Shown piece after piece: positions 9,487-58,997 of a stretch of 64,000 nt of DNA. This DNA comes from Candidatus Omnitrophota bacterium (GTDB lineage Bacteria > Omnitrophota > Gorgyraeia > Duberdicusellales > 4484-171): assembly GCA_037146775.1 (NCBI GenBank), contig JBAWWL010000003.1, positions 133,956 through 197,955 on the forward strand, in the 5' to 3' direction. Below the pieces are notes generated by a model. That model was not told the origin of the DNA and searched no databases. It saw only the letters and a list, made by a program, of their open reading frames with translations. Position 1 is the first letter of the stretch; every line of letters starts with the position of its first letter. The translations under genes and the position numbers were made by a program.

Positions 9487-10500
9487 ATGAAGAAAAACTC
9501 CTCCAAAACCTCTAAAAAAACGCCTGTAAAAAAAGAAAAAAAATCTTTACTTAAGCGTGTTGTGTCACGCATTTCCCGACGCAGTAAAAAAGCACCTATC
9601 CAAGAAGAAATCGTTTCTCCAAAACCCACCTATTCCTTAGAAGCAGAAAAAGAAGCGGTAGAGATTGAAAAAGTTAATTTTACCGCAGTCCAAGAGACTA
9701 AACCCGAATCGGCGTATAACTTGCCGCTGCGTTATGGCGATAACCGTATAGTGCTCCTGGCGCGTGACCCGTGGTGGTTGCACACGTATTGGGATGTTGC
9801 CGAGCAGAGGATTAACGAAGTTATTTCTTCAATACCGGTTTATGAGCGGGAAAATTTAAAGTGGATAATTCGCGTGTATGACGTAACAGGCATTAAGAAC
9901 TTTGAAGGTAATAATGCGAACGCTTTTTTTGATATCGATATCCGTTTTGAAGCAAATAACTGGTATGTTAACGTTAACCAGCCGGAACGTGACTGGTGTG
10001 TGGAAATAGGCTTAATCAATCCTTTCGGTAAGTTCTTTCCCGTTGCCCGTTCCAACATTATCAAGACGCCTTATTTCGGTATTTCGTCCGTTATCGATGA
10101 AGAGTGGGCTTTACCGGATGAAGATTATTATAAAGTGTTGGGAGTTTATGATTTGGGAAAGAGCTCTTTGGAGAGAAAGAAAAAGTTTGAAGAAATCATC
10201 AAGCATCAGATCTCATCACCGTTGGCTTCCTGGGGTATGAGCAGCTTGTTCAGCGAGCGGCCTCGCGTTGCGGATAAATTTTTCTTAGAAGTATGGACAG
10301 AGCTTATTCTTTACGGCCGGACCGAACCGGACGCTGACGTTACGGTAGAAGGCAAAAAAGTCCATCTAAAATCAGACGGTACGTTTTCGCTGCGTTACGC
10401 TCTTCCGGTGGGAGATTATACGTATCAAGTGGTCGGTGTTTCAAAGAACAAGAAACACAAGATTACCAAAACTCCCGCAGTAAAACGGTTCGATAAATAA
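9487..10500 (+). CDS. DUF4912 domain protein (Lys-rich N-terminus)
   Basis: It has the signature 'RIVLLARDPWWLHTYWDV'. This family is often found beside GH57 genes. Confidence 0.7.
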   Translation: MKKNSSKTSKKTPVKKEKKSLLKRVVSRISRRSKKAPIQEEIVSPKPTYSLEAEKEAVEIEKVNFTAVQETKPESAYNLPLRYGDNRIVLLARDPWWLHTYWDVAEQRINEVISSIPVYERENLKWIIRVYDVTGIKNFEGNNANAFFDIDIRFEANNWYVNVNQPERDWCVEIGLINPFGKFFPVARSNIIKTPYFGISSVIDEEWALPDEDYYKVLGVYDLGKSSLERKKKFEEIIKHQISSPLASWGMSSLFSERPRVADKFFLEVWTELILYGRTEPDADVTVEGKKVHLKSDGTFSLRYALPVGDYTYQVVGVSKNKKHKITKTPAVKRFDK

Positions 10501-10545
10501 ACCAGAAAACAGAAAACAGGGGACAGATAACAGAAAATCTGTCTT
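10501..10545. repeat. Heptad repeat element (RACAGAA)n ending in a 7-bp hairpin gacagat/atctgtc (site A)
   Basis: 'accagaa aacagaa aacaggg gacagat aacagaa aatctgt'. It has a 7-nt period. Confidence 0.5.
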
Positions 10546-10580
10546 TGCGTTATCCGCTGTATTCTGAATAAACAAAACTT

Positions 10581-12164
10581 ATGGAAAAAGGATATCTATC
10601 GTTTGTTTTACACGCACACCTGCCTTTTGTCCGTCACCCCGAATATAAAGAATTCTTAGAAGAACGCTGGCTGTTTGAAGCCATTACCGAAACCTACATC
10701 CCGCTGTTAGAGATGTTTGAGGGTTTGGTAAAAGACGGCGTTGAATTTTACATAACCATGAATCTGTCGCCGTCTTTATGTAATATGCTGGCGGACGAAC
10801 TTCTGTGCAACCGCTATATCGGCCATCTCAATAAGATGGTTGAACTGTGTGAAAAAGAAGTTGAGCGCAACAGATTCAATCCTGATTTTTATAAGGTTGC
10901 GCTTATGTATTATCATCGTTTTCATCGCACCAGAGACAAATTTCTTCATGTGTATAACAGGAATTTGATCAAAGAATTTAAAAAATATCAGGACAAAGGG
11001 TTTTTAGAGATTATTACCTGCGGAGCGACTCATGGATTTTTACCGCTCTTAGGGATACAAAAAGAAGCAGCAAAAGCACAGATCAGGGTAGGAGCGAATT
11101 CTTACCGTAAGTTTTTTGGATGCGATCCTAAAGGCATATGGCTGCCTGAGTGCGCTTATTACGAAGATCTGGATAAATTTTTGAAAGAAGAAGGTATACG
11201 TTATTTTCTTGTGGAGTCTCACGGTATTCTTTTTTCCAGGCCTCGGCCTAAATTCGGCGTGTACTCTTCATATTATACAAAAAACCGAGTGGCGGTATTT
11301 GGAAGGGACCACGAATCGTCAAAAAGCGTATGGTCTTCTGTTGAAGGTTACCCCGGCGATTATAACTATCGCGAATACTACCGCGATATTGGCTTTGATT
11401 TAGATTATGATTATATACGTCCGTACATATCTGACTGCGGCACGAGAATCTTTACCGGAATAAAATACTATCGTATTACCGGCGAAACCCCGCATAAAGA
11501 GCCGTATGTTCCAGAGTGGGCTCTTGACAAGGCTGTCTTCCACGCGAGCAATTTTATGTTTAACCGCGAAAAACAAATAGAATATCTCAGCTCTATCTTT
11601 GACCGAAAACCGATTATTGTCGCGCCATATGACGCGGAATTGTTCGGCCACTGGTGGTTTGAAGGAGTGCAGTGGTTAGGCCTTCTTATCCGCAAAATTC
11701 GTTATGACCAAAAAACCTTTCAGTTGACCACACCTTCACGCTATCTTTCGCAGTATCCGAAAAACCAAGTTATCACTCCTGCGGCGTCGAGCTGGGGCTG
11801 GAAAGGCTATTATGAAGTATGGTTGAACGGTTCTAATGACTGGATATATCCCCATCTGCATAGAGCGCAGGAAAAAATGGTGGAAGCGGTGAAACAATAC
11901 CGCTCGGCAGGGCCGATGAAGGAACGAATCTTAAATCAAATGGCGCGCGAACTGCTTCTGGCGCAGTCCAGCGATTGGGCGTTTATGATGAAGACAGGTG
12001 CTTTCTCGGAGTATGCATGCAAAAAAACCGTGACTCATCTGGAACGTTTTTATCTCCTCAAGTCCTATCTGGACAGAAGTTTCGTCAATAACGAAATGAT
12101 CGAAGATATCGAAAGTAAAGATAATATCTTTCCTGAGATTAACTATTCCGTTTTCCAACCTTAA
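10581..12164 (+). CDS. GH57-family 1,4-alpha-glucan branching enzyme
   Basis: Its N-terminus 'LSFVLHAHLPFVRHPE' is typical of GH57 branching enzymes. It is 527 aa. Confidence 0.8.
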   Translation: MEKGYLSFVLHAHLPFVRHPEYKEFLEERWLFEAITETYIPLLEMFEGLVKDGVEFYITMNLSPSLCNMLADELLCNRYIGHLNKMVELCEKEVERNRFNPDFYKVALMYYHRFHRTRDKFLHVYNRNLIKEFKKYQDKGFLEIITCGATHGFLPLLGIQKEAAKAQIRVGANSYRKFFGCDPKGIWLPECAYYEDLDKFLKEEGIRYFLVESHGILFSRPRPKFGVYSSYYTKNRVAVFGRDHESSKSVWSSVEGYPGDYNYREYYRDIGFDLDYDYIRPYISDCGTRIFTGIKYYRITGETPHKEPYVPEWALDKAVFHASNFMFNREKQIEYLSSIFDRKPIIVAPYDAELFGHWWFEGVQWLGLLIRKIRYDQKTFQLTTPSRYLSQYPKNQVITPAASSWGWKGYYEVWLNGSNDWIYPHLHRAQEKMVEAVKQYRSAGPMKERILNQMARELLLAQSSDWAFMMKTGAFSEYACKKTVTHLERFYLLKSYLDRSFVNNEMIEDIESKDNIFPEINYSVFQP

Positions 12165-12175
12165 GTACGTGACCC

Positions 12176-13759
12176 ATGAATAGTTCGCCTACCAAAGTAA
12201 TATTTTTATGGCACATGCATCAGCCGTGCTATAAGATTCCTGGCACAAACCATTATTCACTTCCCTGGGTACGGCTTCACGCGATAAAAGATTATTATGG
12301 CATGGCAAGAATCATCGCCAACTTTACCAAGGTGAAAGTTGCCTTTAATTTCAGCGGTGTTCTTCTGGAACAACTCCTCGATTATGTAAATGGTTCGAGT
12401 GATTCTTATCTGGATGTAACCGCCAAACAACCAGCACATCTCAGCCGCGAAGAGAGGGCATTTATTATCGATCGCTTTTTCTCCATAAATTTTGACCGAT
12501 TTGTTAAACCGCACCGCAGATATTTGCAGTTATATAATAAGAAGTTATCGCTTAAGAGTAAATTCAGCACACAGGATATATTGGATCTGCAAGTGCTCTT
12601 TAACCTCTTTTGGTTTCATACCTATACGTTACAGGAAGATAAAAATTTAAAGAAGCTTGTTCTTAAGGAAAAAAACTATAACGAAGCCGATAAAGCATAT
12701 ATTATTCAAAAGCAGTATAAAATCATGCAAGAGGTAATCCCTCTTTATAAACGGCTCGTTCATCATGGCCGGATTGAATTGACGCTTACGCCATATTATC
12801 ATCCTATCATGCCGTTGCTTTACGACAGCGATGTCGTCAAGGAATTTTCGTATTTGAAAAAGCCTACCTTACGTTTTTCTTCCCCCGATGACTGCCGCTG
12901 GCATCTGCGGCAGGCAAAAGAATTGTTCAAAAAAACATTCGATTATGAACCGTGCGGCAGCTGGCCGTCGGAAGGCAGTGTTTCTGAAGACGTTGTTTCT
13001 CTCTACGGCCAGGAGGGTTTTAAATGGATCGGGACAGATGAAGCCATTTTGTTTAAGAGCCTTACGACGGGATATGTTTCTTACGACATGATTAAAAATC
13101 AGCGGCACATTATCTATCGTCCCTATACGTTTAAAGACGTTAATATATTTTTCCGAGACAGAAATTTTTCCGATATGCTTAGTTTTGTATACCAGGGCTG
13201 GGATGATGCAACCTTTGCTTCGAACGATCTCATCGAGCATTTTAAGCGCACTCACAGCTACGCAAAGGATATTTTTAAGGAGCGCGCCATCACTATCATC
13301 ATGGACGGAGAGAACGCCTGGGAGTATTACAAGAATAATGGTGTTGATTTCTTGGAGAGGCTTTACAGCGCGCTTGAAAAAAGCGATGTATTGACCACCT
13401 CAACGCCTTCGGAATTCTTAAAACACAGCAGCAAGCGAACGCTTGAGCGGCTTTCCAGCGGTTCCTGGATTAACGGAGACTTTGGCGTGTGGGTGGGGTC
13501 AAAAAAGAACAATATATACTGGAATATTTTACGAAACATCAGGGACATGGTGGAGAAAAGTAAAGTTTCCGATATGGCACTTACTAAAATAAAAAATTAT
13601 TTTTATCTTATCGAGGGTAGTGACTGGTTCTGGTGGAATACTTTTGAAGATACAGTCGGAGAGTTTAAGAAAATTTTCTGTGCGTATATCGAGGAATTAT
13701 ACCGTCTCCTGGGTAAAACGTTGCCCGCGAGCATTAAGTCGATCAAGAACGCAAAGTAA
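12176..13759 (+). CDS. GH57-family glycoside hydrolase (alpha-amylase/amylopullulanase-like)
   Basis: It has the 'LWHMHQPCY' GH57 region-1 motif. It is 527 aa. Confidence 0.75.
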   Translation: MNSSPTKVIFLWHMHQPCYKIPGTNHYSLPWVRLHAIKDYYGMARIIANFTKVKVAFNFSGVLLEQLLDYVNGSSDSYLDVTAKQPAHLSREERAFIIDRFFSINFDRFVKPHRRYLQLYNKKLSLKSKFSTQDILDLQVLFNLFWFHTYTLQEDKNLKKLVLKEKNYNEADKAYIIQKQYKIMQEVIPLYKRLVHHGRIELTLTPYYHPIMPLLYDSDVVKEFSYLKKPTLRFSSPDDCRWHLRQAKELFKKTFDYEPCGSWPSEGSVSEDVVSLYGQEGFKWIGTDEAILFKSLTTGYVSYDMIKNQRHIIYRPYTFKDVNIFFRDRNFSDMLSFVYQGWDDATFASNDLIEHFKRTHSYAKDIFKERAITIIMDGENAWEYYKNNGVDFLERLYSALEKSDVLTTSTPSEFLKHSSKRTLERLSSGSWINGDFGVWVGSKKNNIYWNILRNIRDMVEKSKVSDMALTKIKNYFYLIEGSDWFWWNTFEDTVGEFKKIFCAYIEELYRLLGKTLPASIKSIKNAK

Positions 13760-13777
13760 AATCTCTGGGTGAATATT

Positions 13778-15820
13778 ATGGGAAAAATCTATTTGTTATT
13801 CGGTGCCCACAACCATCAGCCGGTAGGTAATTTCCCGCATATTTTCCGGCAGGCATACGAGAATTGCTACTCGCCTTTCTTATCCACCTTGAACGCGTTT
13901 CCAAAAATACGTTTTAGCCTTCATAATTCCGGACCGCTTTATGACTGGATTCAGGGTAATGCAAAAGAGTATCTCGGTATGCTGAAGCAAATGGTTAAGC
14001 GCGGCCAAGTAGAAATTGTCAGCGGAGGCTACTATGAGCCGATTTTACCGATTATATCGGATGACGATAAATGCGGGCAGATACGCCTCATGAACGGCTT
14101 TATTGAAAAGGTATTTGGTACAAAACCGCAGGGCAGCTGGACCGCGGAACGCGTGTGGGAGCCGTACCTGGCAAGGATCCTGAATCGATGTGACATACGC
14201 TATACTTTTTTAGACGATACGCATTTTCGCTTTTCCGGCTTAAAGGAAAAAGAGTTTTTTGGATACTATACTACCGAAGACGAAGGCCGTCCGGTTCATA
14301 TCTTTCCTATCAGCAAAACCTTGCGCTATAAAATTCCTTTCTCAAAAGCTAACGAAGCTATCGATCTTATCAATAGTTTCGGCTGCGAGGAGGACATCCT
14401 GATAAGTGTTTTTGACGACGGAGAAAAGTTCGGCCTCTGGCCCAATACCTATGACTGGGTATATAACCAGGGCTGGCTGCGCCAGTTCTTGTCGCTTCTG
14501 GAAGGCTCTAAAACGATCCAAACCATTACCCCGCAAGAGGCGATAAAGAAATTTTCTTCTTCAGGCATCGTATATCTTCCTACTGCTTCTTATGAAGAGA
14601 TGGGAGAGTGGGTGCTTGAACCCAAAAGATTTTTTGCGTATGAAGAGCTGAATAATTTCCTGAAAGCTCAAAATCGGCTTGATGAAGCTAAAGATTTTAT
14701 CCGTGCAGGCTTCTTTAGGAATTTTTACCGTAAATATAGCCGGCTTAATTATATGCACAAACGTATGCTTGCAACAAGCAAGGCAATCAATGCCCGCGCT
14801 TGTCCCCAGAAAGACAAAGAAATATTTACTTCGCTTTATAAAGCCCAGACCAATTGCGGCTATTGGCACGGCGTATTCGGTGGCTTTTATCTTGGCCATA
14901 TCAGGTCGGCGGTGTACGAGAATCTTATCCATGCGCAAAATCTCTTTGATAAAAAATATAGCAAAGAAGCCGTAACACTCGAAGAAGAGGATATCGATCT
15001 AGACGGCAATAAAGAGTATACGGTGCGTAACAATCATATGATATGTTGTTTTTCACCAAAAGGCGGGTCGCTCCTTGAAATGAGCCTGCGTAATTCCGGC
15101 TTTAATCTTTTGAATACCATTACGCGCCAGGAAGAATCCTATCATCAGAAGATACGGCAAAATGTCAATCAAACCGCTGAAGTTGCTACCATCCATAATA
15201 TCGTGCAACAGAAGGATAAGGATTTGGATAAATTTCTCGTCTATGACGCGTACGAACGCCTTGGCCTTATTGATCACCTGTTGGACAAGAAGCTGACGAG
15301 CGCGGCATTTAATTCAGGCGAGGGCGTGGTGAGTTTGAGCGGCGAGCAATACTCTATGGCTGCTAAAGGAGACAAGAAAAAGGCGGTTTTGGAGTGCCGT
15401 TTTAGCGATAAAAACCTTGATTTTACTAAGCAAATTGAATGCGGACAAGATTGCGGTTTTGATGTCCTTTATACGTTTCGCAAAAAAAATATCTTGAACG
15501 ATTATAATTTTGGTATAGAATTTAATATATCCTTGCCGTCGCCAAACGATATATACAAGAAAGACAAGGCTAAGGAAATATCGTTGAACGAGCCGCGGCA
15601 ATGGCAGGAACAGGGCTCTTTGACTATTGTTGATCATTTTAAAAAGATAGCGATAGAATTTTGTGTCGATACCTGTGATATCATGACCATGCCGTTATAT
15701 TCGGTATCTTCTTCGGAATCCGGATTCGAGAAAGTGTATCAACAGCTTGTCGTACTTTTTATTGCGAAACATAAGAAAGATACCTTCCGGCTGGCTTTAC
15801 GTATACACGCAAAGAAGTAA
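13778..15820 (+). CDS. GH57-family 4-alpha-glucanotransferase-like enzyme with C-terminal extension
   Basis: It has 'LLFGAHNHQPVGNF' (GH57 region 1) plus a long C-terminal domain. An alternative GTG start lies at 13769. Confidence 0.75.
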   Translation: MGKIYLLFGAHNHQPVGNFPHIFRQAYENCYSPFLSTLNAFPKIRFSLHNSGPLYDWIQGNAKEYLGMLKQMVKRGQVEIVSGGYYEPILPIISDDDKCGQIRLMNGFIEKVFGTKPQGSWTAERVWEPYLARILNRCDIRYTFLDDTHFRFSGLKEKEFFGYYTTEDEGRPVHIFPISKTLRYKIPFSKANEAIDLINSFGCEEDILISVFDDGEKFGLWPNTYDWVYNQGWLRQFLSLLEGSKTIQTITPQEAIKKFSSSGIVYLPTASYEEMGEWVLEPKRFFAYEELNNFLKAQNRLDEAKDFIRAGFFRNFYRKYSRLNYMHKRMLATSKAINARACPQKDKEIFTSLYKAQTNCGYWHGVFGGFYLGHIRSAVYENLIHAQNLFDKKYSKEAVTLEEEDIDLDGNKEYTVRNNHMICCFSPKGGSLLEMSLRNSGFNLLNTITRQEESYHQKIRQNVNQTAEVATIHNIVQQKDKDLDKFLVYDAYERLGLIDHLLDKKLTSAAFNSGEGVVSLSGEQYSMAAKGDKKKAVLECRFSDKNLDFTKQIECGQDCGFDVLYTFRKKNILNDYNFGIEFNISLPSPNDIYKKDKAKEISLNEPRQWQEQGSLTIVDHFKKIAIEFCVDTCDIMTMPLYSVSSSESGFEKVYQQLVVLFIAKHKKDTFRLALRIHAKK

Positions 15821-15863: not shown

Positions 15864-16061
15864 ATGGCATTCCCAACAAGAGGTTTTTCCAAGAGTCCCG
15901 CGAGCAAAAACAATACGTGCAAAATTGACGAAGGAAAACTGAATCAGATGATCAAAGAGCGCGCGTATTACATTTGGGAAAGTAAAGGCAAACCCCAAGG
16001 CCAGGATAGAGCTATTTGGTTCCAGGCAGAAAAAGAAGTTCTTGCTAAAGTAAAGAAATAA
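15864..16061 (+). CDS. DUF2934-like small protein
   Basis: It has 'ERAYYIWESKGKPQGQDRAIWFQAEKE' and a strong RBS 'aaaaggagg'. Confidence 0.55.
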   Translation: MAFPTRGFSKSPASKNNTCKIDEGKLNQMIKERAYYIWESKGKPQGQDRAIWFQAEKEVLAKVKK

Positions 16062-16175: not shown

Positions 16176-16574
16176 GTGATGAAGGCAGTAAAAGGCGAAG
16201 AGATTATACTCACCATGGAAAACAAAGTTGGCGCATTAGAGGTAATAGCCAAGTTAGTCACCGATGCCGGCATTAATTTAAGGGGTATAAGCGCGTACGT
16301 TATCGATAATAAGGCTATGTTCAGGATTATTGCCTCGGATAATGCTAAAGCGAAAGACATCCTCAAGAAGGCAGGAACGATACAGACAAAAGAAGTAATT
16401 ATTGTAGATGTACCTGATGAAATAGGCCAGTTGCAAGTCCTCGCTACAAAGCTTAAGGATGCAGGTATAGATCTTACTCATATCTATGGCACTACCTCGA
16501 AACCGCACCAGTCAGCGATTATTGTATTTGCTTCAAACAATAATAATAAAGCGTTGGAAGTCATTGCTTCTTAG
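16176..16574 (+). CDS. Tandem ACT-domain protein
   Basis: It has two repeats of the form 'ILTMENKVGALEVIAKLVTDAGINL' and 'IIVDVPDEIGQLQVLATKLKDAGIDL'. Confidence 0.65.
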   Translation: MMKAVKGEEIILTMENKVGALEVIAKLVTDAGINLRGISAYVIDNKAMFRIIASDNAKAKDILKKAGTIQTKEVIIVDVPDEIGQLQVLATKLKDAGIDLTHIYGTTSKPHQSAIIVFASNNNNKALEVIAS

Positions 16575-16580
16575 CTTTTA

Positions 16581-17795
16581 ATGCGCATCCAATTTCCCTC
16601 TTCGTTTCTATGGGGGGCAGCCCTTTCTAGTTATCAGACCGAAGGGAATATTTTCAATACCGATTGGTCGCTTTGGGAACAAGAAAAAAAACTGGAACAA
16701 GCTGGCCGAGCCTGTGATCATTATCATTTATTTAAAGAGGACTTCAATTTAGCCAGCCAGCTACACCTCAATTGTCTGCGAATCTCGTTGGAGTGGGCGC
16801 GTATCTGTCCCGGTCCAGGCGTGTATCAGGAAGAGGAACTCGCGCATTACCGAGAGGTGATCGATACATTAAAGGCCTTGGGTCTTAAACCTATCATTAC
16901 TCTGCATCATTTTACCAACCCCCTTTGGTTTAGCCAGCGCGGCGGCTGGGAAAATTCAGAAAATGTTGATTTTTTCCTCGCCTATTTGAAAAAAACCGCT
17001 GGTTGTTTTAAGAAGGATATAACGTATTGGTTGATCCTTAATGAACCGCTCGTGTATATCTATAACAGTTTTGTCGCCGGGATTTGGCCGCCGGGAATAC
17101 GTTCTCTTAAAACAGCCAAAAAAGTTCTTAACAATCTCCTTTCTGCGTATATAACGGGCTACCAGGAAATAAAACATATATACAGACAAGAAGGTTTAAC
17201 TGCGCAGGTTTCTTTTGTAAAGCACATGAGAATATTTTCGCCCTGCCCCAGTTTCAGTTTCGGTCTAAATAATCTTTCAGCTTGCGTCCGGCATTACCTG
17301 TTTAATACGCAATTTCTTGATAAGGTAATTCGCGGCCGCTACCTTGATTTTATTGCCATTAACTATTATTGTAAGGAGTATGTCGCGTTTAAGGGTTTAG
17401 CCGGAGTAGAGTGCACACACAATTCTCATTCTGAAAAGAAAAATGCGCTTGGCTGGTATACTTACGCTTGTGGGCTATATAAGATACTGGTTGCCATGAA
17501 ACGTTTCAAGCTTCCCATTATTATTATGGAGAATGGGACTGCCGAAGTTTCCGATATATCATATCGCCAATTCTTACTATCCCACTTAGAAGCTTTAGGG
17601 AGGGCGTTACAGGAAGGAGTTGATGTACGGGGGTACCTTTGGTGGTCGCTCATCGATAATTTTGAATGGGATAAAGGTTTCGGCCCCCGTTTTGGCTTGA
17701 TTTCGGTCGATTATAAAAACTTAGCACGTAACGTCAAGCCATTCGCTCACACGTATGCCGGTATCTGTAAAGAGAATGCAATAGACGTTTTGTAA
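16581..17795 (+). CDS. GH1-family beta-glucosidase
   Basis: It has 'FLWGAALSSYQTEG', the catalytic acid/base 'LNEP', and the nucleophile 'IMENG'. Confidence 0.85.
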   Translation: MRIQFPSSFLWGAALSSYQTEGNIFNTDWSLWEQEKKLEQAGRACDHYHLFKEDFNLASQLHLNCLRISLEWARICPGPGVYQEEELAHYREVIDTLKALGLKPIITLHHFTNPLWFSQRGGWENSENVDFFLAYLKKTAGCFKKDITYWLILNEPLVYIYNSFVAGIWPPGIRSLKTAKKVLNNLLSAYITGYQEIKHIYRQEGLTAQVSFVKHMRIFSPCPSFSFGLNNLSACVRHYLFNTQFLDKVIRGRYLDFIAINYYCKEYVAFKGLAGVECTHNSHSEKKNALGWYTYACGLYKILVAMKRFKLPIIIMENGTAEVSDISYRQFLLSHLEALGRALQEGVDVRGYLWWSLIDNFEWDKGFGPRFGLISVDYKNLARNVKPFAHTYAGICKENAIDVL

Positions 17796-17810
17796 CCATT
17801 GTGTAATACC

Positions 17811-19661
17811 ATGGATAATAAAGACGTACAGTTTATCATTACCAACACCCCGCCTTTTAATAAACTAAAACCGGAGGAGCTCGCCCAGTTTATTGCTCTT
17901 TCCGAAGTCAAAGCATATAGAAATGGGGATATTATTTATCATAACGGAGATGCCGGAGAATATTTTTATTTTCTGTTGGCCGGCCGGGTAGCTATTCTCA
18001 ATAGCGATTATAGCCGGGATGCGGAAATAGAAACTTTAAAACGCGGTACCTGCTTTGGTATTATCTCCCTTTTTAACGATGAACCGCATTCGGTAACCGC
18101 CAAATCTACCGGCATCTCGTGGGTTCTCTTAGTTAAAAAAGATGCTTTCAAGGAATTCTTGCATGCCCACGCGATGCTTTCTCTTGAATTTTACCGGATT
18201 CTTTCGCAGCGTATACGTACAAGAGCCAAACCAAAAAAAATATTTCAATGTAAGCGCATAGCCGTGTTTGGATTCCCTTTGTCGGGCAAGACCACCTATG
18301 TGGTTCATCTGGGGCGTGAACTTATTGAGCAAACCAAAAAAAAGGTTATCTGTGTAGAATTTTCCTTAGAAAATAATTTCAGCCTTCCCGAGGTGCTCGG
18401 CAAAGAAGCTAAGCCGCTTGAACTGGAGGCATTTAGCGAAGAGCAGATCGAAGAACATATTGTACATGACAGCGTTGATGGCCTTTTGGTAAAGATAGTC
18501 AACGGAAGCAATATTCTTTCTTTATTAAATTGCCTTTATGAGCGGTATCACTTTATTGTCTACGAAATTCCTTCTGTGTTGGGCGATATGTATCTTTACG
18601 ATATGGTTGAACCGTGTGATTATTTGCATATTCTTCTTTCCGGTCACAACGAAGAGTTTACCGCTTTAGCGCATACTATCGCGGCGTTAAAAGAAAAAAG
18701 CCCGATTAACCAAGAAAAGATAAAGATTATCGTGAATGAGTCAGCCACAAAAGACATGTCTTCGCAGGAAATGGTACGTTTACTTCGGCATCCTCTCTAT
18801 GCTACCTTGCCTGTTCTCGCCAGCGATGACTATATCAAGATGATGCGCCGCATTGCGCGTCAAACGGCAGAGGTGGTGGTAGGTTTGGCGCTTGGTTCCG
18901 GAGCAGCCTACGGATTATCCCATATCGGAGTATTAAAGGTCCTTGAAGCGCACGAGATCCCCATTGATATCATCTGTGGCTCCAGTATTGGTGCGGTCAT
19001 CGCGAGCCTGTGGGCATGCGGTTACGCCGTGAGTGACATTGAAGCGATATGTAAAGATTTTGCCAAGCGTGGTAATCTTTTTTCCTTCTCTGGTATATCA
19101 TTTCCGTTTCGAGGCTTCTTTCGGATAAAACGTTTGGAGAAGGTGCTCAGAGATATTTTTAAAGATAGAACTTTTTACGACGTGAAACGAACCTTAAAAA
19201 TAGTGGCATTTGATTTCTATAAAAGAGAAACACGTGTGCTTGAAGAAGGACTCCTGTATAAAGCGCTGGCAGCCAGCTGTGCGATGCCCGGGATTTTTGA
19301 ACCCGTGCGGTTTAAAGAAGACATACTTTTAGACGGAGGTATTTTGAACCCGCTTCCTACGAAAGTGCTTCTCGGCTATGGGGTCAACAAGATAATCGCG
19401 GTCAACATCACGCCTTCAAAAGAGGAAATCTTTAATACTTACAGGAAAAAAAATAGTTTACACATTCTTGATTTCATTTTTGGCAGCATCGAAACTATGC
19501 AGGGGGAATTTGTCCAGCAGGCAATAAGCGTTGCGGATGTGGTCATTCATCCAAAACTTAACGGTTTAGGCTGGATGGAGTTTGATAAGATAGGGCCATT
19601 TATCCAGCGGGGAGAGGAAGCAGCAAGAGAAAAATTACAAGATATGAAGCGCTTATGCTAA
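17811..19661 (+). CDS. Cyclic-nucleotide-binding domain / degenerate P-loop domain / patatin-like phospholipase (NTE-like architecture)
   Basis: It has an N-terminal cNMP-binding fold ('YRNGDIIYHNGDAGEYFYFLLAGRVAIL...GTCFGIISLF'), a middle 'FGFPLSGKTT' deviant Walker-A-like segment, and a C-terminal patatin domain ('GLALGSGAAYGLSHIGVL...CGSSIGAVIASL' with GxSxG). Confidence 0.8.
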   Translation: MDNKDVQFIITNTPPFNKLKPEELAQFIALSEVKAYRNGDIIYHNGDAGEYFYFLLAGRVAILNSDYSRDAEIETLKRGTCFGIISLFNDEPHSVTAKSTGISWVLLVKKDAFKEFLHAHAMLSLEFYRILSQRIRTRAKPKKIFQCKRIAVFGFPLSGKTTYVVHLGRELIEQTKKKVICVEFSLENNFSLPEVLGKEAKPLELEAFSEEQIEEHIVHDSVDGLLVKIVNGSNILSLLNCLYERYHFIVYEIPSVLGDMYLYDMVEPCDYLHILLSGHNEEFTALAHTIAALKEKSPINQEKIKIIVNESATKDMSSQEMVRLLRHPLYATLPVLASDDYIKMMRRIARQTAEVVVGLALGSGAAYGLSHIGVLKVLEAHEIPIDIICGSSIGAVIASLWACGYAVSDIEAICKDFAKRGNLFSFSGISFPFRGFFRIKRLEKVLRDIFKDRTFYDVKRTLKIVAFDFYKRETRVLEEGLLYKALAASCAMPGIFEPVRFKEDILLDGGILNPLPTKVLLGYGVNKIIAVNITPSKEEIFNTYRKKNSLHILDFIFGSIETMQGEFVQQAISVADVVIHPKLNGLGWMEFDKIGPFIQRGEEAAREKLQDMKRLC

Positions 19662-19686
19662 TATGCCGGCGTCTTGTGGCAGAATA

Positions 19687-20712
19687 TTACTCGATTACCA
19701 GCAAAGAATTTTTTCCGCCAAAATGATCGTCTTCTTCAAGCTTGTTGTGGGGATCGGAAATCCACGAATCTCCTGCCAGAAACTTATAGCGATATTTACC
19801 TTTTTCGGATAGCGGTATATTGATGGTCCAAATATCGTTTCCGACCTTCTTTAATTTATACTGTTCTTCTTTTTTCCAGTTGTTAAAATCGCCGATGGCA
19901 TACACTTCGTTAAACTGCTCGCCTTTTAAGAAAAGCGGTTTCCAGGTTGTTTGGGAAGTGATCCGTTCTAATTCCGTCGCCAGCGCCAAGAAATCTTCAG
20001 CGCCTCGGGAATCGGGCATATATTCGAAAATTGTCTTTCCGGCCGAAGAGGCTTCTTTAAGATGTACGTTGGTACGTATACTGCTTTCCAGAACCAAACT
20101 TCCCAGCTGTTTTTTTACCTTCTCCGTGAATTCTAAAGAGAACCGGTAACGTTTATCCAGTTGATTGAGCAAATAGAACGAAACAGGAGCTTTGCCTTTG
20201 AACTCTTTGAGCATAATAATAATATCCTTCAATATTTCAACCCCGCGCAGAGAGAAGTCGCACATATTTAAGGGAATGATTGAATACGCGCTTGCTTCGA
20301 GTGCGTTGAGTGTAAGAACTCCCAAGTTAGGAGGGCAGTCTAGTACGCAATAATCAAAATTCGCCGATATGGTTTGCAGGAAAGAGGATAGAATGCTGAA
20401 CCGGTCTTCCCGCTGAGAAACTTTATATTCTAAAGACGCCAAGCCGATACGTGAAGGTATAAAGTAGAAATTGTCTGCGATTGACACATAAAGATTATCC
20501 TGCGGCAGCGCTTCTTCCAGGTACATCTTCTCTAGGATATCAGTGATGGTAGTGGTATTGTCTTTTCTTAAGGCGAACGTAGCGTGTGCCTGGGGATCCA
20601 TGTCTATCAAAAGCACCTTAAAACCTTTCTTGCTTAAGGCAGCTGAAAGGTTAACCGCCGTTATCGTTTTTCCGCAACCGCCTTTTTGATTAACCACAGA
20701 AATGATTTTCAT
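19687..20712 (-). CDS. ParA/MinD-family ATPase fused to a C-terminal CBM48/AMPK-beta-type glycogen-binding domain
   Basis: It has a deviant Walker A 'NQKGGCGKTITAVNLSAAL...LLIDMDPQ'. The C-terminal approximately 85 aa ('VYAIGDFNNWKKEE...GKYRYKFLAGDSWISDPHN') matches the CBM48/AMPK-beta GBD consensus (FNNW...YKF..DG.W..DP). Confidence 0.8.
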   Translation of the reverse strand: MKIISVVNQKGGCGKTITAVNLSAALSKKGFKVLLIDMDPQAHATFALRKDNTTTITDILEKMYLEEALPQDNLYVSIADNFYFIPSRIGLASLEYKVSQREDRFSILSSFLQTISANFDYCVLDCPPNLGVLTLNALEASAYSIIPLNMCDFSLRGVEILKDIIIMLKEFKGKAPVSFYLLNQLDKRYRFSLEFTEKVKKQLGSLVLESSIRTNVHLKEASSAGKTIFEYMPDSRGAEDFLALATELERITSQTTWKPLFLKGEQFNEVYAIGDFNNWKKEEQYKLKKVGNDIWTINIPLSEKGKYRYKFLAGDSWISDPHNKLEEDDHFGGKNSLLVIE

Positions 20713-20726
20713 CTATTCTACCCTCC

Positions 20727-21425
20727 TTAATTCATCGTTATATCTTTGATCAATACCCACTGTGTTTTATCGGTGGCTGTCGGATAAAAAGAAAACGTAA
20801 TCTGATTTATGCGATATAGATTGGCGTTTTGCACCCCAGCGCTTTTAAGGTCGACGGGCACCTTTACGTAAGAAACTGTTTCGTCCGTAATTTCGCTCGT
20901 GGCGGGATGCAAAGAATTAGAAAAGAAATTACTGTCGCGTACTGTTACTGCCATCGTAAGCGGCGTTGATGATTTTTGCAGATGAACCATTAGCGTCCCG
21001 GACGCAAGGTCGATTGGTTTCTTCAGCGTTATGATAAACGTTGTCGAATTGCGCGGTGTAATGGTAATATGTATAGCCGATGAGCCTTTTTTTATTTTCT
21101 GTGTATCGGAAGAATCAAGAGAAGAAAAGATTTCCCCGTGTAGCAACGAATTGGCATTGTTATCTATTATGGCTGTCTGGCGGGCGATGACCATGAATTC
21201 GTATTTCGTTAAAAAGAATATCAGCGTAGCGGTTAAGGCGAAAACCACCATTACTATCGAGAGAATAAGCAGATTTCTATGGTGGGGTTTCTTTTTTCTT
21301 TTTTTCTTGGGCGGAGAGAAAAAAGTATCTTTTAACCGCTGAGAATCGAGATAGCTGTATGATGCAAAAGGATTATCTCGTTTGTCCACAAAAAATATAT
21401 TAGCATTGAATTTTAGAAAAATCAA
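20727..21425 (-). CDS. Hypothetical membrane-anchored protein with poly-basic N-terminal tail; co-operonic with the ParA-CBM48 gene
   Basis: It has 'PPKKKRKKKPHHR' followed by a TM helix and an approximately 150-aa beta-rich extracytoplasmic domain. It lies 14 nt upstream of the ParA-like gene on the same strand. Confidence 0.5.
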   Translation of the reverse strand: MIFLKFNANIFFVDKRDNPFASYSYLDSQRLKDTFFSPPKKKRKKKPHHRNLLILSIVMVVFALTATLIFFLTKYEFMVIARQTAIIDNNANSLLHGEIFSSLDSSDTQKIKKGSSAIHITITPRNSTTFIITLKKPIDLASGTLMVHLQKSSTPLTMAVTVRDSNFFSNSLHPATSEITDETVSYVKVPVDLKSAGVQNANLYRINQITFSFYPTATDKTQWVLIKDITMN

Positions 21426-21491
21426 CTATATAATTTGAATCAAACGGCCATATATCTAAAAATATAGCCGTTTTAGGGCAATAGGATACGT

Positions 21492-22517
21492 ATGGCAAAA
21501 GAAGCTTCTTTTTATAGCAAAGAACCACACCAGTCAGTGCGTTGTTTTCTCTGCGCGCACCGCTGCTCTATTAAGAACGAATCTACCGGTATCTGCGGTG
21601 TACGTAAAAACCAAGAAGGTATCCTTTATGCTTTAAACTATGGCCAGGTTGTTGCCGCGCATATCGATCCGATCGAGAAAAAACCATTGTTTCATTTCTT
21701 TCCCGGCACAACGTCTTATTCGCTCGCCTGTGTGGGGTGTAATTTTAAGTGTTCTTTCTGTCAAAATTGGCAGATTTCTCAAACCGCCTTCTCCCGTGCC
21801 GTCGGTGTCGACGGTTTTGGAGTAACGCCCGATAAAATTGTGCAGGAGGCCAAGCTCCATAACTGTCCCAGCATTTCGTATACGTATACCGAACCAACGA
21901 TATACTTCGAATTTGCCTATGATTGTGCGAAACAAGCCAAAGAAAACGGGCTCTATAACGTTTTTGTTACCAATGGATATATGAGCAAAGAGGCACTTGT
22001 CTCCATTAGCCCGTATCTTGACGCGGCTAACGTAGATTTAAAATCATTCCGGCAAGATTTTTATCACACTTTTTGTAAAGCTTCTTTGCAACCGGTTTTA
22101 GAGAGTATTGCTCTTATGCATAGCCTAAATATTTGGCTGGAGATAACCACGCTCATTATTCCCGGCGCAAACGACAGTGAAGATCAATTGCGGGATATTG
22201 CCCGTTTCTTATGTTCGATTGATGCGTCTATTCCCTGGCACCTAAGCGCGTTTCATCCTGACTATAAGCTTACCGATGTTTGTTCTACACCAGCTAAAAC
22301 GCTTGAGAAGGCTTATGGCATCGGGAAAGACGAAGGTTTGAAATATGTATATATGGGCAATATCTATACGCCGCGCGGAGAAAATACGTATTGCCCTTCC
22401 TGTAAACAGCTTTTGATTGAGCGTGAAGGGTTTTTGGTGAAACAGCAGAAAATAAAAGAAGGCACTTGTCCGTATTGCGGGATACGCATAGAGGGTTTAG
22501 GTCCCCCTTTTCGATAG
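21492..22517 (+). CDS. amrS: AmmeMemoRadiSam-system radical SAM enzyme (PFL-activase-like)
   Basis: It has an N-terminal Cys cluster 'CFLCAHRCSI', a radical SAM motif 'CVGCNFKCSFCQNW', and a C-terminal 'CPSC...CPYCG'. Confidence 0.7.
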   Translation: MAKEASFYSKEPHQSVRCFLCAHRCSIKNESTGICGVRKNQEGILYALNYGQVVAAHIDPIEKKPLFHFFPGTTSYSLACVGCNFKCSFCQNWQISQTAFSRAVGVDGFGVTPDKIVQEAKLHNCPSISYTYTEPTIYFEFAYDCAKQAKENGLYNVFVTNGYMSKEALVSISPYLDAANVDLKSFRQDFYHTFCKASLQPVLESIALMHSLNIWLEITTLIIPGANDSEDQLRDIARFLCSIDASIPWHLSAFHPDYKLTDVCSTPAKTLEKAYGIGKDEGLKYVYMGNIYTPRGENTYCPSCKQLLIEREGFLVKQQKIKEGTCPYCGIRIEGLGPPFR

Positions 22518-51545: not shown

Positions 51546-53705
51546 ATGTTCCAGCGATTGATATATACTGGTCGATATGTGTGCTTCTTTGTGTGCAGCA
51601 TGATGGGTATCTCTCCCGCGTTTAGTCAAGTATCCAGCGTGACGGTACCTATCCAGGAGGACACTATGGTTAGAGATATCCAGCGTACCATCGCTGTTTT
51701 ATCCAACACTCACACGCATCTTTCGCCAAGCCATGTTGGGCATCCAGGTTATGGAGATCTTGCTTTTCTCTACGATAAAGCCGTGGACGCACTTGTTTTA
51801 AAGGCAGGAGGATATCAAAAAGAAGCCCAAGCCATTCTTGATTATTTTGCAGCCCGCCTGAAGATTCCTTTCGAGGAAATACGTATGCATGCTGATACGA
51901 ATGATACTTACGGAATTATAAAGATTTTTTCTCCATTTTCAGCCTCCGGCATGCCCACCAAAGCATTAATGAATGCTTTGGATATTACCTCAAACCGCAG
52001 GCAGGGGAAAGCTACCCTTGAATTTTTTACCACACCTGGACCGACCTCATTTCTTATCTTTGCTTTTCTTCAGGTCAACCCAGATATTTATAAAAACGAG
52101 GCGCTGCTGCTAGGAGAGGTTTTACTGGCGATGCAAAACGCAGACGGAGGTATCCGGGATGGTGACCGGTCGCCGGAGAAGGTTCATACCGAACCGCACA
52201 TGGATAGTTATGCCGCATTCATGATGCTGTATCAAATAAGCGGGGATAGTAAATGGGAAATAGCCGCTCATAGAGCTCTTGAGTGGTTTAACGCAAACGT
52301 GTATCATCCCAATGAGGCGGCAATCGATCAAGGTGTGTGGGCACACGCTCCTAATCAGGCGTTTGCTACCGACGCCTACTCCTGGACTATGGCCGGCCCC
52401 TTGGGTGACACGATTTCTCCCGAGATGCTTAAGCGTTTGAGCGAGCGGATGCTTGAAGAGAGTTTAACAAAAATCACCCTTCCGGTTCCTGACGGTACCG
52501 TAAGAACTGTAACGCTCTGTGATTTTAGTAACCCTGAAAGCCAGGTCGTAAAAAATATACGCCAGGGATTCCATCCGATGGGTTCGGTAGAATGGACTGC
52601 GGGGGTAATTCTTGCCCTGCAAAAGAACGCGGTGAGGTTTTGGAATACCGGCGATCGCAAGGCCGCCAGTTTCTATAAAGCCATTGCTCAGATACTTTCT
52701 GGCGAAACAAAAAAATGTTTTTATCGGCTCGATAATACATATATGACATTTTATGCCACAGGCCAGGGTGTCTGCGTTGGCCCTTTCGGTTCAATCTCGG
52801 GGGTAAGTATAGAGGGTTGGAAGACGCCATTTTTCTATGTAAAAAGTAAAGATAACCAGGTGCTGATAAAGGGTGGGAGTTGCGTGGGCGCCTGGATCAT
52901 CCTGCCACATCTTGGCTTCAACCCGTTTATTCTCAATGACCGGTACCATGAAACGTACGGGAAAATACCGCTGACACAAGAAACAACGGATCAGGCTAAA
53001 ATATTTGTAGATAAAATCGCAAGCAAACGTTTTTTTACCGAGGGTGTTATCCGCGAAGCGCCCAGCCCCGACAGCCAGATCGTCGAGCCGGCTTTGTTTA
53101 ATGAAAAAATGTGGGATGCCTTAGAAAAAGGATATGCTCAGCGTACAAGAGGTGATTACGTAAAGGCAGAAATATATTTTCAAAAAGCAGCTTTTTGGGC
53201 ACATAAGGTTGTGGATAATTCGGCTTGGTGCCAGCGCGCGCGGGCCGACAATGCACAGAAAGAAAAAGAAATCGGCGGTATTGTTTCATATCCGTGGGGC
53301 GCTGTCTATCGAGATAATGATCACCCGTTGCATTATGCGGTATTGAGATACCCTTTATTAAACGAAGTTGCTGCTGCGATGTGGGCTTTGGCCACGGTTA
53401 ATTTCGAGCTAGGCCATCCGGAAGAAACAAAATATTGGATTCGGCGTATCATCGATGAGGTTTCTCTGCATCAGATCGCGGATATTAAAAAAGACGGCCA
53501 ACAGGAGGCGCCTGATTTAATCCAGGGATATTGGAATGCGCTTGTTTCTTGGGAAGATAACCCTGGTGGATACGAGCGGGACAAGAAAATCGGCGTGCTT
53601 TATCGGGAAGTATTGCGGGAGAAAAAACTTTCTGGTGCCAAGCCAAAAACAGTAATAGTTCCTGATTTTGTCACAAGAGCCCCCGGGGTTGGGGATCGGC
53701 AGTAA
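51546..53705 (+). CDS. Large hypothetical secreted protein, possibly alpha/alpha-toroid fold
   Basis: It has a signal peptide and repeated helical 'LL.GE.LLAMQNADGGIRDG'-type segments. It is 719 aa and the fold guess is weak. Confidence 0.45.
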   Translation: MFQRLIYTGRYVCFFVCSMMGISPAFSQVSSVTVPIQEDTMVRDIQRTIAVLSNTHTHLSPSHVGHPGYGDLAFLYDKAVDALVLKAGGYQKEAQAILDYFAARLKIPFEEIRMHADTNDTYGIIKIFSPFSASGMPTKALMNALDITSNRRQGKATLEFFTTPGPTSFLIFAFLQVNPDIYKNEALLLGEVLLAMQNADGGIRDGDRSPEKVHTEPHMDSYAAFMMLYQISGDSKWEIAAHRALEWFNANVYHPNEAAIDQGVWAHAPNQAFATDAYSWTMAGPLGDTISPEMLKRLSERMLEESLTKITLPVPDGTVRTVTLCDFSNPESQVVKNIRQGFHPMGSVEWTAGVILALQKNAVRFWNTGDRKAASFYKAIAQILSGETKKCFYRLDNTYMTFYATGQGVCVGPFGSISGVSIEGWKTPFFYVKSKDNQVLIKGGSCVGAWIILPHLGFNPFILNDRYHETYGKIPLTQETTDQAKIFVDKIASKRFFTEGVIREAPSPDSQIVEPALFNEKMWDALEKGYAQRTRGDYVKAEIYFQKAAFWAHKVVDNSAWCQRARADNAQKEKEIGGIVSYPWGAVYRDNDHPLHYAVLRYPLLNEVAAAMWALATVNFELGHPEETKYWIRRIIDEVSLHQIADIKKDGQQEAPDLIQGYWNALVSWEDNPGGYERDKKIGVLYREVLREKKLSGAKPKTVIVPDFVTRAPGVGDRQ

Positions 53706-53754
53706 ACTTAAAAATGATTTGACAGAGATATCTCAGATGGTACATTGACAATTG

Positions 53755-54120
53755 ATGAGCGAGCGTCGGAAGAATATACGGATACATAAATCCCTGATTG
53801 TACGTTTCAAACTTCCCAAGGGTTATCTGGGTATGTCTTCGCGCAGCGACAATATCAGCGAAGACGGAATGCGTATGGGTGCCTTGCAACGGTTTGAGCC
53901 GGGAATGTCTTTGCAGCTAAATTTTAATCTGCAGGAGTATACGGACCCCGTTATCGTTAATGCAACGGTGGTATGGGTGGATTACAAAAAACAAAGTTAT
54001 TTTCCATTTGTCTTAGGTTTACGGTTTATTAATCTCGCTGATTCCGATCGCCCTCGCTTACGTGATTATATTAGCCATGTCGTTAGAGAAGAAAACCTTT
54101 CTATCTCTCCTGGCGCCTAG
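53755..54120 (+). CDS. PilZ-domain protein (c-di-GMP receptor-like)
   Basis: It has 'RRKNIR' (RxxxR) and 'NISEDG' ((D/N)xSxxG) motifs. It is 121 aa. Confidence 0.65.
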   Translation: MSERRKNIRIHKSLIVRFKLPKGYLGMSSRSDNISEDGMRMGALQRFEPGMSLQLNFNLQEYTDPVIVNATVVWVDYKKQSYFPFVLGLRFINLADSDRPRLRDYISHVVREENLSISPGA

Positions 54121-54134
54121 CGATTTTTCTATTC

Positions 54135-54165
54135 TCGTAAGACCTTCTTGAGCCGTTATGTACCC
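54135..54165 (+). terminator. Perfect 10-bp hairpin after the PilZ gene, followed by a second inverted repeat at 54185-54230
   Basis: 'cgttatgtac-ccag-gtacataacg', then 'tttaaaccg...cggtttaaa'. Confidence 0.45.
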
Positions 54166-54968: not shown

Positions 54969-54981
54969 GCTTGGGGAGGCC

Positions 54982-55317: not shown

Positions 55318-55497
55318 AAAAGCACTCCCTTAATGCAAGCGTATTATAGCTGCCAAAACGATCTTCGTCCGTTTTCCCATAAAACCTGCGGTGTTATTTG
55401 AGGTTTTTGTCTATCATCCATTCGGTTTTAATGGAGTAGGCAGGTACAAAAAACTTTATAATATTGGAAAAAAATAAGAGGCTATTTTTGAGCAGGA

Positions 55498-58957: not shown

Positions 58958-58997
58958 TTTGTTATTTTCTTTGATATCGTCAAACCTTACCTTTTTT

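Follow-up and report, generated by a model that had tools for sequence, protein, structure and literature searches.

Two adjacent genes on the minus strand of a 64-kb stretch of Candidatus Omnitrophota DNA (contig JBAWWL010000003.1; the whole stretch is called the window below) encode a ParA-type ATPase fused to a CBM48 glycogen-binding domain and, upstream of it, a small membrane protein. The fusion gene occupies 19687–20712 including its stop codon and encodes 341 amino acids (aa). The partner gene lies 14 nucleotides (nt) upstream on the same strand, and the ribosome-binding site of the ATPase gene, AAGGAGG (20722–20728), sits within this gap and overlaps the partner's stop codon. Both open reading frames (ORFs) were found where the original prediction, a reading of the letters made without database searches, had placed them, and the motifs it quoted (KGGCGKT, DMDPQ, FNNW, YRYKF, GDSW and SDP) all occur in the 341-aa protein. 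Its length of 232 aa for the partner is that of the mechanical ORF, which reaches a TTG at 21425, and had to be revised at the start: because homologues begin at the GTG at 21389, this is almost certainly the true start and the TTG the less likely one, giving a bitopic membrane protein of 220 aa (20727–21389). A promoter and terminator scan of 19400–21700 returned eight promoter-like sites (4.6 ± 2.0 in shuffled sequences) and one terminator (2.2 in shuffles), and Rfam and tRNA scans of the 64-kb window found no RNA genes.

Hidden Markov model (HMM) searches of the 341-aa protein placed AAA_31, CbiA and AMPK1_CBM above their Pfam cutoffs and CBM_48 marginally below. AAA_31 scored 158.5 bits (cutoff 27) over residues 1–169 and CbiA 73.1 bits (cutoff 25.4), the two together spanning residues 1–228 of an ATPase domain that we delimit to residues 1–250 (19963–20712). 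No NCBIfam model reached its cutoff; the best was ParA_partition (106.5 bits vs 180), followed by cellulose_yhjQ (70.5 vs 157.9), eps_fam (37.3 vs 108) and minD_bact (36.5 vs 212.9). The nearest relatives of solved structure were a ParA family protein (8ray, 125 bits, residues 2–249 aligned) and Soj (6iub/1wcv, 92–96 bits), with MinD (~68 bits) and McdA (61 bits) more distant.

The catalytic set of the ATPase is intact. The deviant Walker A motif, K10-G-G-C-G-K-T16 (20665–20685), has the signature lysine K10 and an unusual Cys13; in an alignment of 85 fusions from several phyla, 84 keep K10, K15 and T16 unchanged and the other has a gap there, and the Walker A' and Walker B aspartates D37, D39 and D125 are invariant in the same alignment. 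Arg188 (20149–20151), conserved in 85/85 fusions, falls opposite R189 of Bacillus subtilis Soj in a pairwise alignment that has G12, K16, D40 and R189 of Soj at their published numbers. In Soj, R189 is required for non-specific DNA binding. Position 217, the counterpart of Soj R218, is Lys or Arg in 65/85 fusions. There is no C-terminal amphipathic helix of the MinD type, because the CBM occupies the C-terminus of the fusion, which ends ...NSLLVIE; the C-terminal tyrosine cluster of bacterial tyrosine kinases (BY-kinases) was not found in the protein either. These comparisons identify the ATPase as a ParA/MinD superfamily member that is Soj/ParA-like rather than MinD-like, so that of the earlier label 'ParA/MinD-type' the first half stands, and the second falls with the missing membrane helix and the invariant R189-equivalent arginine. 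The Walker A cysteine, which takes the place of the usual Val, Thr or Ser, is a hallmark of the family: KGGCGKT was present in 121 of 135 fusion representatives recovered by a profile search made without that motif. It may be a redox- or metal-sensitive position.

The C-terminal module, residues 262–341 (19690–19929), follows a linker of residues 251–261 (19930–19962) that shows lower predicted local distance difference test (pLDDT) values at the start of the CBM model; in the family-wide comparison the linker measures 18 aa in this protein and 18–73 aa overall. AMPK1_CBM (PF16561) matched residues 268–337 at 34.8 bits (cutoff 26.8), and CBM_48 (PF02922) reached 21.8 bits (cutoff 22.4). When the isolated C-terminal 90 aa were used in phmmer, the CBMs of AMPK beta2 and beta1 led the solved relatives (E 2e-5 to 1e-4), followed by starch phosphatase-like LSF1, amylases and GlgB. 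The AlphaFold model of residues 250–341 had a pLDDT of 91.6, and its top 46 Foldseek matches were AMPK-beta CBMs such as 1z0m, 4yee and 4yef, with cyclodextrin complexes among them (TM-score 0.68–0.79, root-mean-square deviation 1.6–3.0 Å); next came the CBM48 of the GH13 amylase RmGH13_47A, SEX4 and GlgB branching enzymes. W100, K126, W133 and N150 of AMPK beta1, which contact cyclodextrin in 1Z0M, align with W279, K310, W317 and N335 of the fusion. None of the four varies among 45 homologues with identities as low as 47%, and across the 85 diverse fusions W279 is kept in 85/85, K310 as Lys or Arg in 75/85, W317 in 84/85 and N335 as Asn or Asp in 82/85. By domain model, predicted fold and ligand residues the module is a bona fide CBM48, and alpha-glucan binding is strongly implied. 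In a family-profile search the closest proteins without a ParA domain were tandem arrays of the same CBM, two of them fused to GH13 alpha-amylase domains. These include P0156 (1812 aa), P0245 (6207 aa), P0182 and P0271, with 4–20 tandem copies of the same CBM48 subtype and, in some, a GH13 alpha-amylase domain.

The fusion is far from rare. A word-index search found more than 120 clusters from Candidatus Omnitrophota, of ~340 aa and 47–93% identity, all carrying PF16561 and PF13614 and named in databases solely as 'AAA family ATPase' or 'chromosome partitioning protein'. With one genome per species, at least 600 pattern matches were obtained, of which at least 592 were confirmed by tblastn; the best 80 of these were almost all full-length, and their titles included Omnitrophota, metagenome-assembled genomes (MAGs) of Planctomycetia/Planctomycetales, Myxococcota/Deltaproteobacteria, Krumholzibacteria, Eisenbacteria, Margulisiibacteriota, Gemmatimonadales, Phycisphaerae, Auribacter and others. 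Members from Nitrospirota and Leptospirillia were also found, and the complete Omnitrophota genomes CP070807.1 and CP070684.1 carry the fusion. At E ≤ 1e-30 an exhaustive profile search gave 7,721 proteins; after clustering at 50% identity, ParA+CBM fusions of 337–698 aa made up 135 of the best 149 representatives. Separate HMMs for the ParA half and the CBM half matched one ORF in 85/85 loci with a complete gene. Because the architecture recurs in these 85 loci and 135 representatives, it does not reflect a chance fusion, and the sequence searches define ParA-CBM48 as a large family that spans many phyla, has yet to be characterised and is no peculiarity of one lineage. Full-text searches of the literature turned up neither a ParA-CBM48 protein nor glycogen positioning by ParA, and the original prediction likewise knew of no described system; any impression of rarity does not stand. 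What is new is a positioning-type ATPase of the ParA family with putative polysaccharide recognition in cis and, in Omnitrophota, a transmembrane partner as well. Given the family's generic annotation, thousands of genomes are probably mis-described.

The partner protein has the features first ascribed to it, a poly-basic patch, one transmembrane helix and a beta-rich C-terminal domain, both in its sequence and in its AlphaFold model (overall pLDDT 78.7). It begins with a predicted cytoplasmic peptide (21276–21389) in which a conserved helix (...SYSYLDSQRLKDTFF) is followed by the poly-basic PPKKKRKKKPHHR patch; in the family alignment this segment reads ...SY(A/S)YLDSQRLKDTFFSPPKKKRKKK, with D27, R30, F35 and F36 invariant (ORF numbering). 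A single transmembrane helix (21207–21275; hydrophobicity maximum 2.84, AlphaFold helix at residues 37–69) would act as a signal anchor with the N-terminus inside, and a putatively extracytoplasmic beta-sandwich or jelly-roll with an invariant FFSN motif lies beyond it (20733–21128). The positive-inside rule places the N-terminal peptide in the cytoplasm and the sandwich outside, because 8–9 Lys/Arg precede the helix. In the model, a short N-terminal helix at residues 8–23 has a pLDDT of ~60, the transmembrane helix 87–90 and the ten-strand sandwich 80–93. Neither Pfam nor NCBIfam matched the partner, and its profile found no relative by sequence among solved structures. By Foldseek, the sandwich resembled CBM30, 11, 29, 16, 61 and 6 (E 1e-7 to 1e-3; TMq 0.35–0.46, with 40% of the query outside the domain), and we describe it tentatively as CBM30/CBM11-like. 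A permissive Pfam scan of 33 partner-family members gave CBM30 in five (best E 3e-5, weak), SGBP_B_XBD in four and CBM17/28 in three, and no match for the window's own partner.

In 49/85 loci the gene directly preceding the fusion, in the same orientation, encodes the partner, with a median gap of ~20 nt. It falls into three classes that are homologous by HHalign (A–C 97.9%, E 4.5e-13; B–C 97.1%, E 6e-11; A–B 48%) and share a cytoplasmic core, L-x-x-x-[FY]-[FLI], followed by a run of Lys/Arg. Each class corresponds to a near-pure clade of the ATPase tree (8/8, 34/35 and 7/9), which shows that partner and ATPase co-diverged. A reciprocal look-up from three partner homologues (27–48% identity) found the fusion just downstream in 3/3 and a GH57 gene nearby in 3/3. 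Conservation of the upstream gene with the fusion thus holds within the Omnitrophota lineage, to which the membrane partner is specific by these sequence comparisons, and does not extend elsewhere. In one relative, an 81-aa TM2-domain ORF is inserted between partner and fusion (L087:8717-8962).

We clustered all ORFs within 8 kb of the fusion and named recurrent clusters by Pfam. In the window, an alpha-glucan block on the plus strand (9487–15820) comprises a DUF4912 protein, a GH57 branching enzyme (BE_C), a second GH57 enzyme and a GH57 of the amylase/4-alpha-glucanotransferase type; NCBIfam branching-enzyme models scored 367 and 304 bits on window GH57 sequence, below their equivalog cutoffs. 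Between this block and the fusion lie, also on the plus strand (16176–19661), conserved convergent genes for an ACT protein, a short GH1 and a cyclic nucleotide monophosphate (cNMP)-binding/patatin phospholipase. The glycogen-centred context first described, three GH57 genes and GH1 within 5 kb, is correct for GH1, at 1.9–3.1 kb, and too narrow for the GH57 trio, at 3.9–9.1 kb. Omnitrophota MAGs have been reported to encode glycogen synthesis (PMC8542988). The order partner, fusion, then convergent cNMP-binding/patatin, GH1 and ACT genes characterises group A (the window and L001–L007), in which the window, L001 and L003 have the GH57 block next in line and L004 keeps a remnant of it. Counted over all loci, the alpha-glucan block is also near the fusion in L001, L003 and L086–L088, and the ACT, GH1 and cNMP/patatin trio converges on it in L002–L006, L086 and L087.

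The 34 loci of group B show a second arrangement. Upstream, PPDK and sigma-70 genes are followed, after intervening genes, by an Alginate_exp-like outer-membrane barrel, GH57 and a partner variant (MDKKDIYEHLAKIYLDASSKKKKK plus transmembrane helix); downstream of the partner come the fusion, a DUF4870-like small membrane protein and a protein with a Lys-rich N-terminal tail. GH57 directly precedes the partner in 21/34 of these loci, with gaps mostly of 15–145 nt, and it is the orthologue of the window's GH57 gene at 12176–13759 on the plus strand (37–42% identity; the best match among 24 neighbouring GH57s). In group C (7 loci), a third partner variant (...QLADIYF..., a basic stretch and a transmembrane helix) precedes the fusion. 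The group-B string is co-directional, for example in L029:7758-11856 and L035:6382-11565, with a DUF4870-like protein of 108 aa followed by a Lys-rich protein of 120–190 aa. The latter has an extremely Lys-rich N-terminal tail, a small EF-Tu-domain-2-like barrel and the motif VTHYFPHVxAAVIKL...GDxIxIKGHTTDF; it could be an McdB-like factor. None of the group-B companions (the Alginate_exp-like barrel, the DUF4870-like protein, the Lys-rich protein c1 and others) has a homologue in the 64-kb window.

At the 36 loci without a transmembrane partner, a different gene recurs. In 7–8 of them a gene (c21) directly downstream of the fusion encodes a protein that starts KLGRGL(E/S)(E/D)VSxxFLS, an N-terminal peptide of the ParB/Spo0J type; the remainder is a diverged domain of ParA fold whose P-loop is degenerate (93% in HHalign against the ParA half, E 2.8e-7). 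By these sequence features c21 looks like a pseudo-ParA adaptor that carries a ParB-type activating peptide. An LGRGL-type peptide after the fusion indicates that this ATPase family is operated by classical ParA-activating peptides, and its presence in other phyla makes an analogous role for the N-terminal peptide of the Omnitrophota partner more plausible. The c21 protein has 280–330 aa (L051, L053, L064, L067, L068, L079, L081 and L082; e.g. L079:11128-12045) and is often followed by a conserved protein of 190–230 aa (c43). Homology between the Omnitrophota partner and c21 was considered and rejected: the HHalign probability was ~0, and the likeness comes down to a short motif, [FY][FL]S following a conserved Leu, which we keep as a lead.

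We tentatively read the gene pair as a glycogen-directed ParA system, an ATP-switched tether that would distribute glycogen on the nucleoid under regulation from the membrane, and we hold this at somewhat less than an even chance. What the analysis established is the domain architecture, the conserved residues, the folds, the adjacency in an operon, the co-divergence of the two genes and the linkage to GH57; from these we infer dimerisation, DNA binding, glycogen binding, an interaction between peptide and ATPase, and the positioning outcome. ATP binding would dimerise the Soj-type half, and the dimer would bind the nucleoid non-specifically through the conserved Arg188 surface. With one flexibly linked CBM48 per subunit, the dimer would be a bivalent alpha-glucan binder, able to tether glycogen particles to the nucleoid and to spread or partition them, with cargo recognition built into the ATPase and not supplied by an adaptor. 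At the inner face of the membrane, the helix and poly-Lys/Arg patch of the partner would play a role like that of ParB, MinE or McdB: the peptide may stimulate ATP hydrolysis or capture the ATPase, so that turnover and granule placement are referenced to the envelope. The outer CBM30/11-like domain might localise or gate the partner through the wall or an external glycan.

The intact ParA catalytic set, the Soj-like arginine, what models and sequence indicate to be a genuine CBM48, the conserved partner and GH57 in two independent arrangements all argue for a glycogen-directed ParA system. Moreover, the ATPase is an orphan ParA, with no ParB adjacent in any locus: the ParB box-II motif was absent beside the fusion in all 85 loci, no adjacent ParB/parS-type partner was seen in 88 loci, and domain scans of the 64-kb window found neither a ParB domain nor a second ParA. 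The observation behind the original prediction is real, and its interpretation is partly supported.

Several points weigh against this proposal. In known ParA ratchets the activator sits on the cargo, and a membrane-anchored activator combined with a cargo binder on the ATPase is wiring unlike theirs. It is hard to see what the partner's CBM-like domain, predicted to lie outside the cytoplasm, would contribute to positioning within it, and a purely cytoplasmic model leaves this domain unexplained. The operon of the largest clade, with its Alginate_exp-like barrel and small membrane protein, points towards the envelope, and part of the GH57 adjacency in that clade may be phylogenetic inertia, because the clade's synteny also takes in housekeeping genes (PPDK, sigma-70). 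The expected linkage of the fusion to glycogen genes is borne out in Omnitrophota by GH57 in its two arrangements and fails in other phyla: the 36 partner-less loci have no recurrent glycogen neighbour (one GH77 among 112 flanking genes, of which no family recurs more than three times), and GH57 lies within 8 kb in just 3/36, leaving 33/36 without. Nor is there a GH57 within 8 kb in the seven loci of group C. Finally, many Omnitrophota are reported to be ultra-small cells, in which a need for granule positioning is not self-evident.

The same GH57 linkage would also suit a granule-surface scaffold or metabolic switch, in which CBM48 parks the ATPase on glycogen with no positioning role. ATP-dependent dimers would then cross-link or coat particles, or recruit or exclude GH57 enzymes, setting particle size or access to the store, and the partner would merely couple this switch to a membrane or envelope signal. 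We consider this unlikely. It fits the operon-like order of GH57, partner and fusion in 21/34 group-B loci, the nearby genes for branching and processing of glycogen in the clade of the window and the fact that the CBM is the most conserved part of the fusion protein; a bivalent CBM dimer is also expected from ParA dimer geometry in general. However, the invariant R189-type arginine and the basic positions 217/219 would be needless without a DNA matrix, no ParA/MinD protein is known to serve as a pure enzyme scaffold on a polymer, and outside Omnitrophota the fusion does not stand beside glycogen enzymes.

The pair could instead belong to an envelope-linked glycan module of the BcsQ/Wzc kind, which would organise, at one particular site of the envelope, the export or import of a glucan or its attachment to the surface. 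Partner and ATPase (with the Alginate_exp-like barrel in other clades) would form the module, and CBM48 would hold a cytoplasmic alpha-glucan substrate or primer. Both the fold of the outer domain and its weak sequence matches are CBM-like; some 28 loci have the order Alginate_exp-like barrel, (GH57), partner, fusion, DUF4870-like membrane protein; and ParA/MinD-fold ATPases with membrane modulators are known in polysaccharide secretion (BcsQ, CapA/CapB). Pfam CBP_BcsQ does match the ATPase, at 35 bits (cutoff 21.3), but this match lies under the far stronger AAA_31/ParA match, BY-kinase models score far below ParA models and the C-terminal tyrosine cluster is lacking. In the window, no glycosyltransferase, synthase, flippase or ABC exporter was found beside the pair, genes of the bcs, cps or wz kind are lacking nearby, neither the barrel nor the small membrane protein occurs anywhere in the 64 kb, and in many phyla the fusion has no membrane partner. 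An envelope module is in our judgement quite unlikely.

We judge decidedly unlikely a glycogen-sensing cell-cycle regulator of the Soj/MipZ kind, which would tune segregation, replication initiation or the choice of division site through CBM48, with the partner as a topological cue. Full-length similarity to ParA/Soj, the retained DNA-binding arginine and the database name 'chromosome partitioning protein' would agree with it, and the closest structural relative of the module, the AMPK-beta CBM, serves as glycogen reporter in AMPK. The missing ParB/parS-type neighbour speaks against it, as do the ParA_partition score below cutoff and the GC skew of the window, which is steady with no origin-like switch; some phyla with the family, such as Myxococcota, have a canonical ParABS, so that the fusion would be an extra ParA there. 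In one locus, that of a distant relative, gidA lies ~2 kb upstream of the partner–fusion pair (L002:6217-8064), a point in favour of a cell-cycle role, since in other bacteria gidA typically accompanies soj-spo0J close to oriC; it was seen in this locus only. That the C-terminal module is a protein–protein interaction domain of CBM48 fold that binds no carbohydrate is very improbable: the AMPK CBM is generally known to contact the kinase domain as well, and CBM_48 stays below its cutoff, yet the sugar-stacking Trp are near-invariant, the Lys/Arg and Asn/Asp ligand positions are kept, GH13 amylases carry the modules nearest to it in sequence and the fusion is linked to GH57.

A wider form of the glycogen-directed ParA reading, which we regard as doubtful, would make ParA-CBM48 a phylum-spanning class of ParA with its own polysaccharide cargo module, distributing glycogen via the nucleoid. 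In Omnitrophota an extracytoplasmic CBM-like receptor would control the ATPase through its N-terminal peptide and so couple a cue from external or wall glycan to the internal store; in other phyla the ATPase would be driven by the LGRGL pseudo-ParA. The partner's outer domain hints at such coupling across the membrane between envelope glycans and internal storage. Next to nothing is known about how bacteria organise and inherit glycogen, their commonest carbon store. ParA systems of their own have been described for plasmids, chromosomes, carboxysomes, chemoreceptor arrays and division sites. With a glycogen-directed ParA, if real, a carbohydrate store would for the first time have a positioning system and a ParA its cargo recognition in cis, extending the ParA positioning principle to a polysaccharide and indicating that cargo recognition can be fused to the motor. 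It would also offer simple testable reagents: the 90-aa CBM, the 38-aa peptide and point mutants.

Several further features of the region deserve mention. The cNMP/patatin gene (17799–19661, plus) encodes 620 aa, with an N-terminal cNMP-binding domain, a middle region of ~210 aa and a patatin phospholipase at the C-terminus. The gene runs towards the fusion gene, from which 25 nt separate it, a position conserved in the window's clade, and in L003 it is split into separate cNMP and patatin genes. Its middle region (IAVFGFPLSGKTT...) looked by eye like a degenerate ParA P-loop, which profile comparison did not support (HHalign ≤1.5% against the ParA profile, 0.9% against c21). Across the clade the gene is accompanied by a 132-aa double-ACT protein and an unusually short GH1 of 404 aa (16176–17795, plus). 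It is curious that a beta-glycosidase-like GH1 stands beside alpha-glucan genes while the partner's outer domain resembles beta-glucan-binding CBMs. The GH57 block opens with the DUF4912 protein (9487–10500, plus), whose C-terminus weakly resembles Glucodextran_B, and closes with a small DUF2934 protein (15864–16061, plus), and both recur with the block in L001, L003, L004, L086 and L087. Divergent from the partner gene lies a radical SAM enzyme of the AmmeMemoRadiSam system (21492–22517, plus; TIGR04337, 357 bits vs cutoff 220), which holds the same place in L002, L003, L007, L031 and L087 and is probably unrelated conserved synteny. Farther away, 53750–60000 has lower GC (0.37–0.40 vs ~0.42–0.43), short hypothetical ORFs and several signal-peptide-like N-termini, with two small proteins that are PilZ-like by eye (53752–54120 and 59177–59557); upstream of this stretch, a 719-aa ORF (51546–53705) has no Pfam match.

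Comparison with known systems sets the fusion closest in sequence to chromosomal ParA/Soj (type Ib, with ParB/Spo0J), with which it shares full-length similarity, the deviant Walker A with its signature lysine, Walker A' and B and the R189 counterpart and, in other phyla, a following protein with a Spo0J-like LGRGL peptide. It differs in the lack of an adjacent ParB/parS, the C-terminal CBM48, a score below the ParA_partition cutoff, the Walker A Cys in place of Val/Thr and, in Omnitrophota, a partner that is a membrane protein. MinD is set apart by its C-terminal amphipathic helix, by a minD_bact score far below cutoff and by min gene neighbours, which domain scans did not find near the fusion. 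BcsQ and the BY-kinase pairs of the CapA/CapB type likewise combine a P-loop protein of ParA/MinD fold with a membrane protein in a polysaccharide context, and CBP_BcsQ matches at 35 bits; unlike them, the fusion lacks a tyrosine cluster, has neither bcs nor cps genes in its vicinity and is matched far better by ParA/Soj models, and, unlike CapA/CapB-type proteins, the partner has one transmembrane helix and an N-terminal, not C-terminal, cytoplasmic peptide. The module itself shares fold, AMPK1_CBM score and the cyclodextrin-contacting Trp, Lys and Asn with the AMPK beta CBM and other CBM48 domains (SEX4, LSF1, GlgB and isoamylase N-domains), at ~26% identity to the AMPK beta CBM, and is carried here by a ParA ATPase instead of a kinase scaffold, phosphatase or glycoside hydrolase. 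PhaM of Ralstonia eutropha tethers polyhydroxybutyrate granules to the nucleoid, and in plants PTST2 and MFP1, a CBM48 protein and a membrane-associated partner, set the sites of starch granule initiation. Both link a storage polymer to a nucleoid or membrane landmark and are alike by analogy only; they are unrelated in sequence to either protein of the pair and work without an ATPase switch. McdA/McdB and orphan ParAs such as PpfA–TlpT, PomZ–PomXY and ParC–ParP resemble the pair in having a ParA for a non-DNA cytoplasmic cargo, putative here, beside a small partner, and in McdAB-type systems the partner's charged N-terminal region is the presumed ATPase activator. McdA is a distant relative (61 bits), and the fusion is not linked to mcdB or to carboxysome genes (cso/ccm), none of which domain scans found in the window; its cargo module is in cis, its partner is membrane-anchored with a predicted extracytoplasmic domain and not on the cargo, and the cargo would be a polysaccharide and not a protein assembly. 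By analogy, these McdAB-type orphan ParA systems appear to be the nearest functional counterparts of ParA-CBM48.

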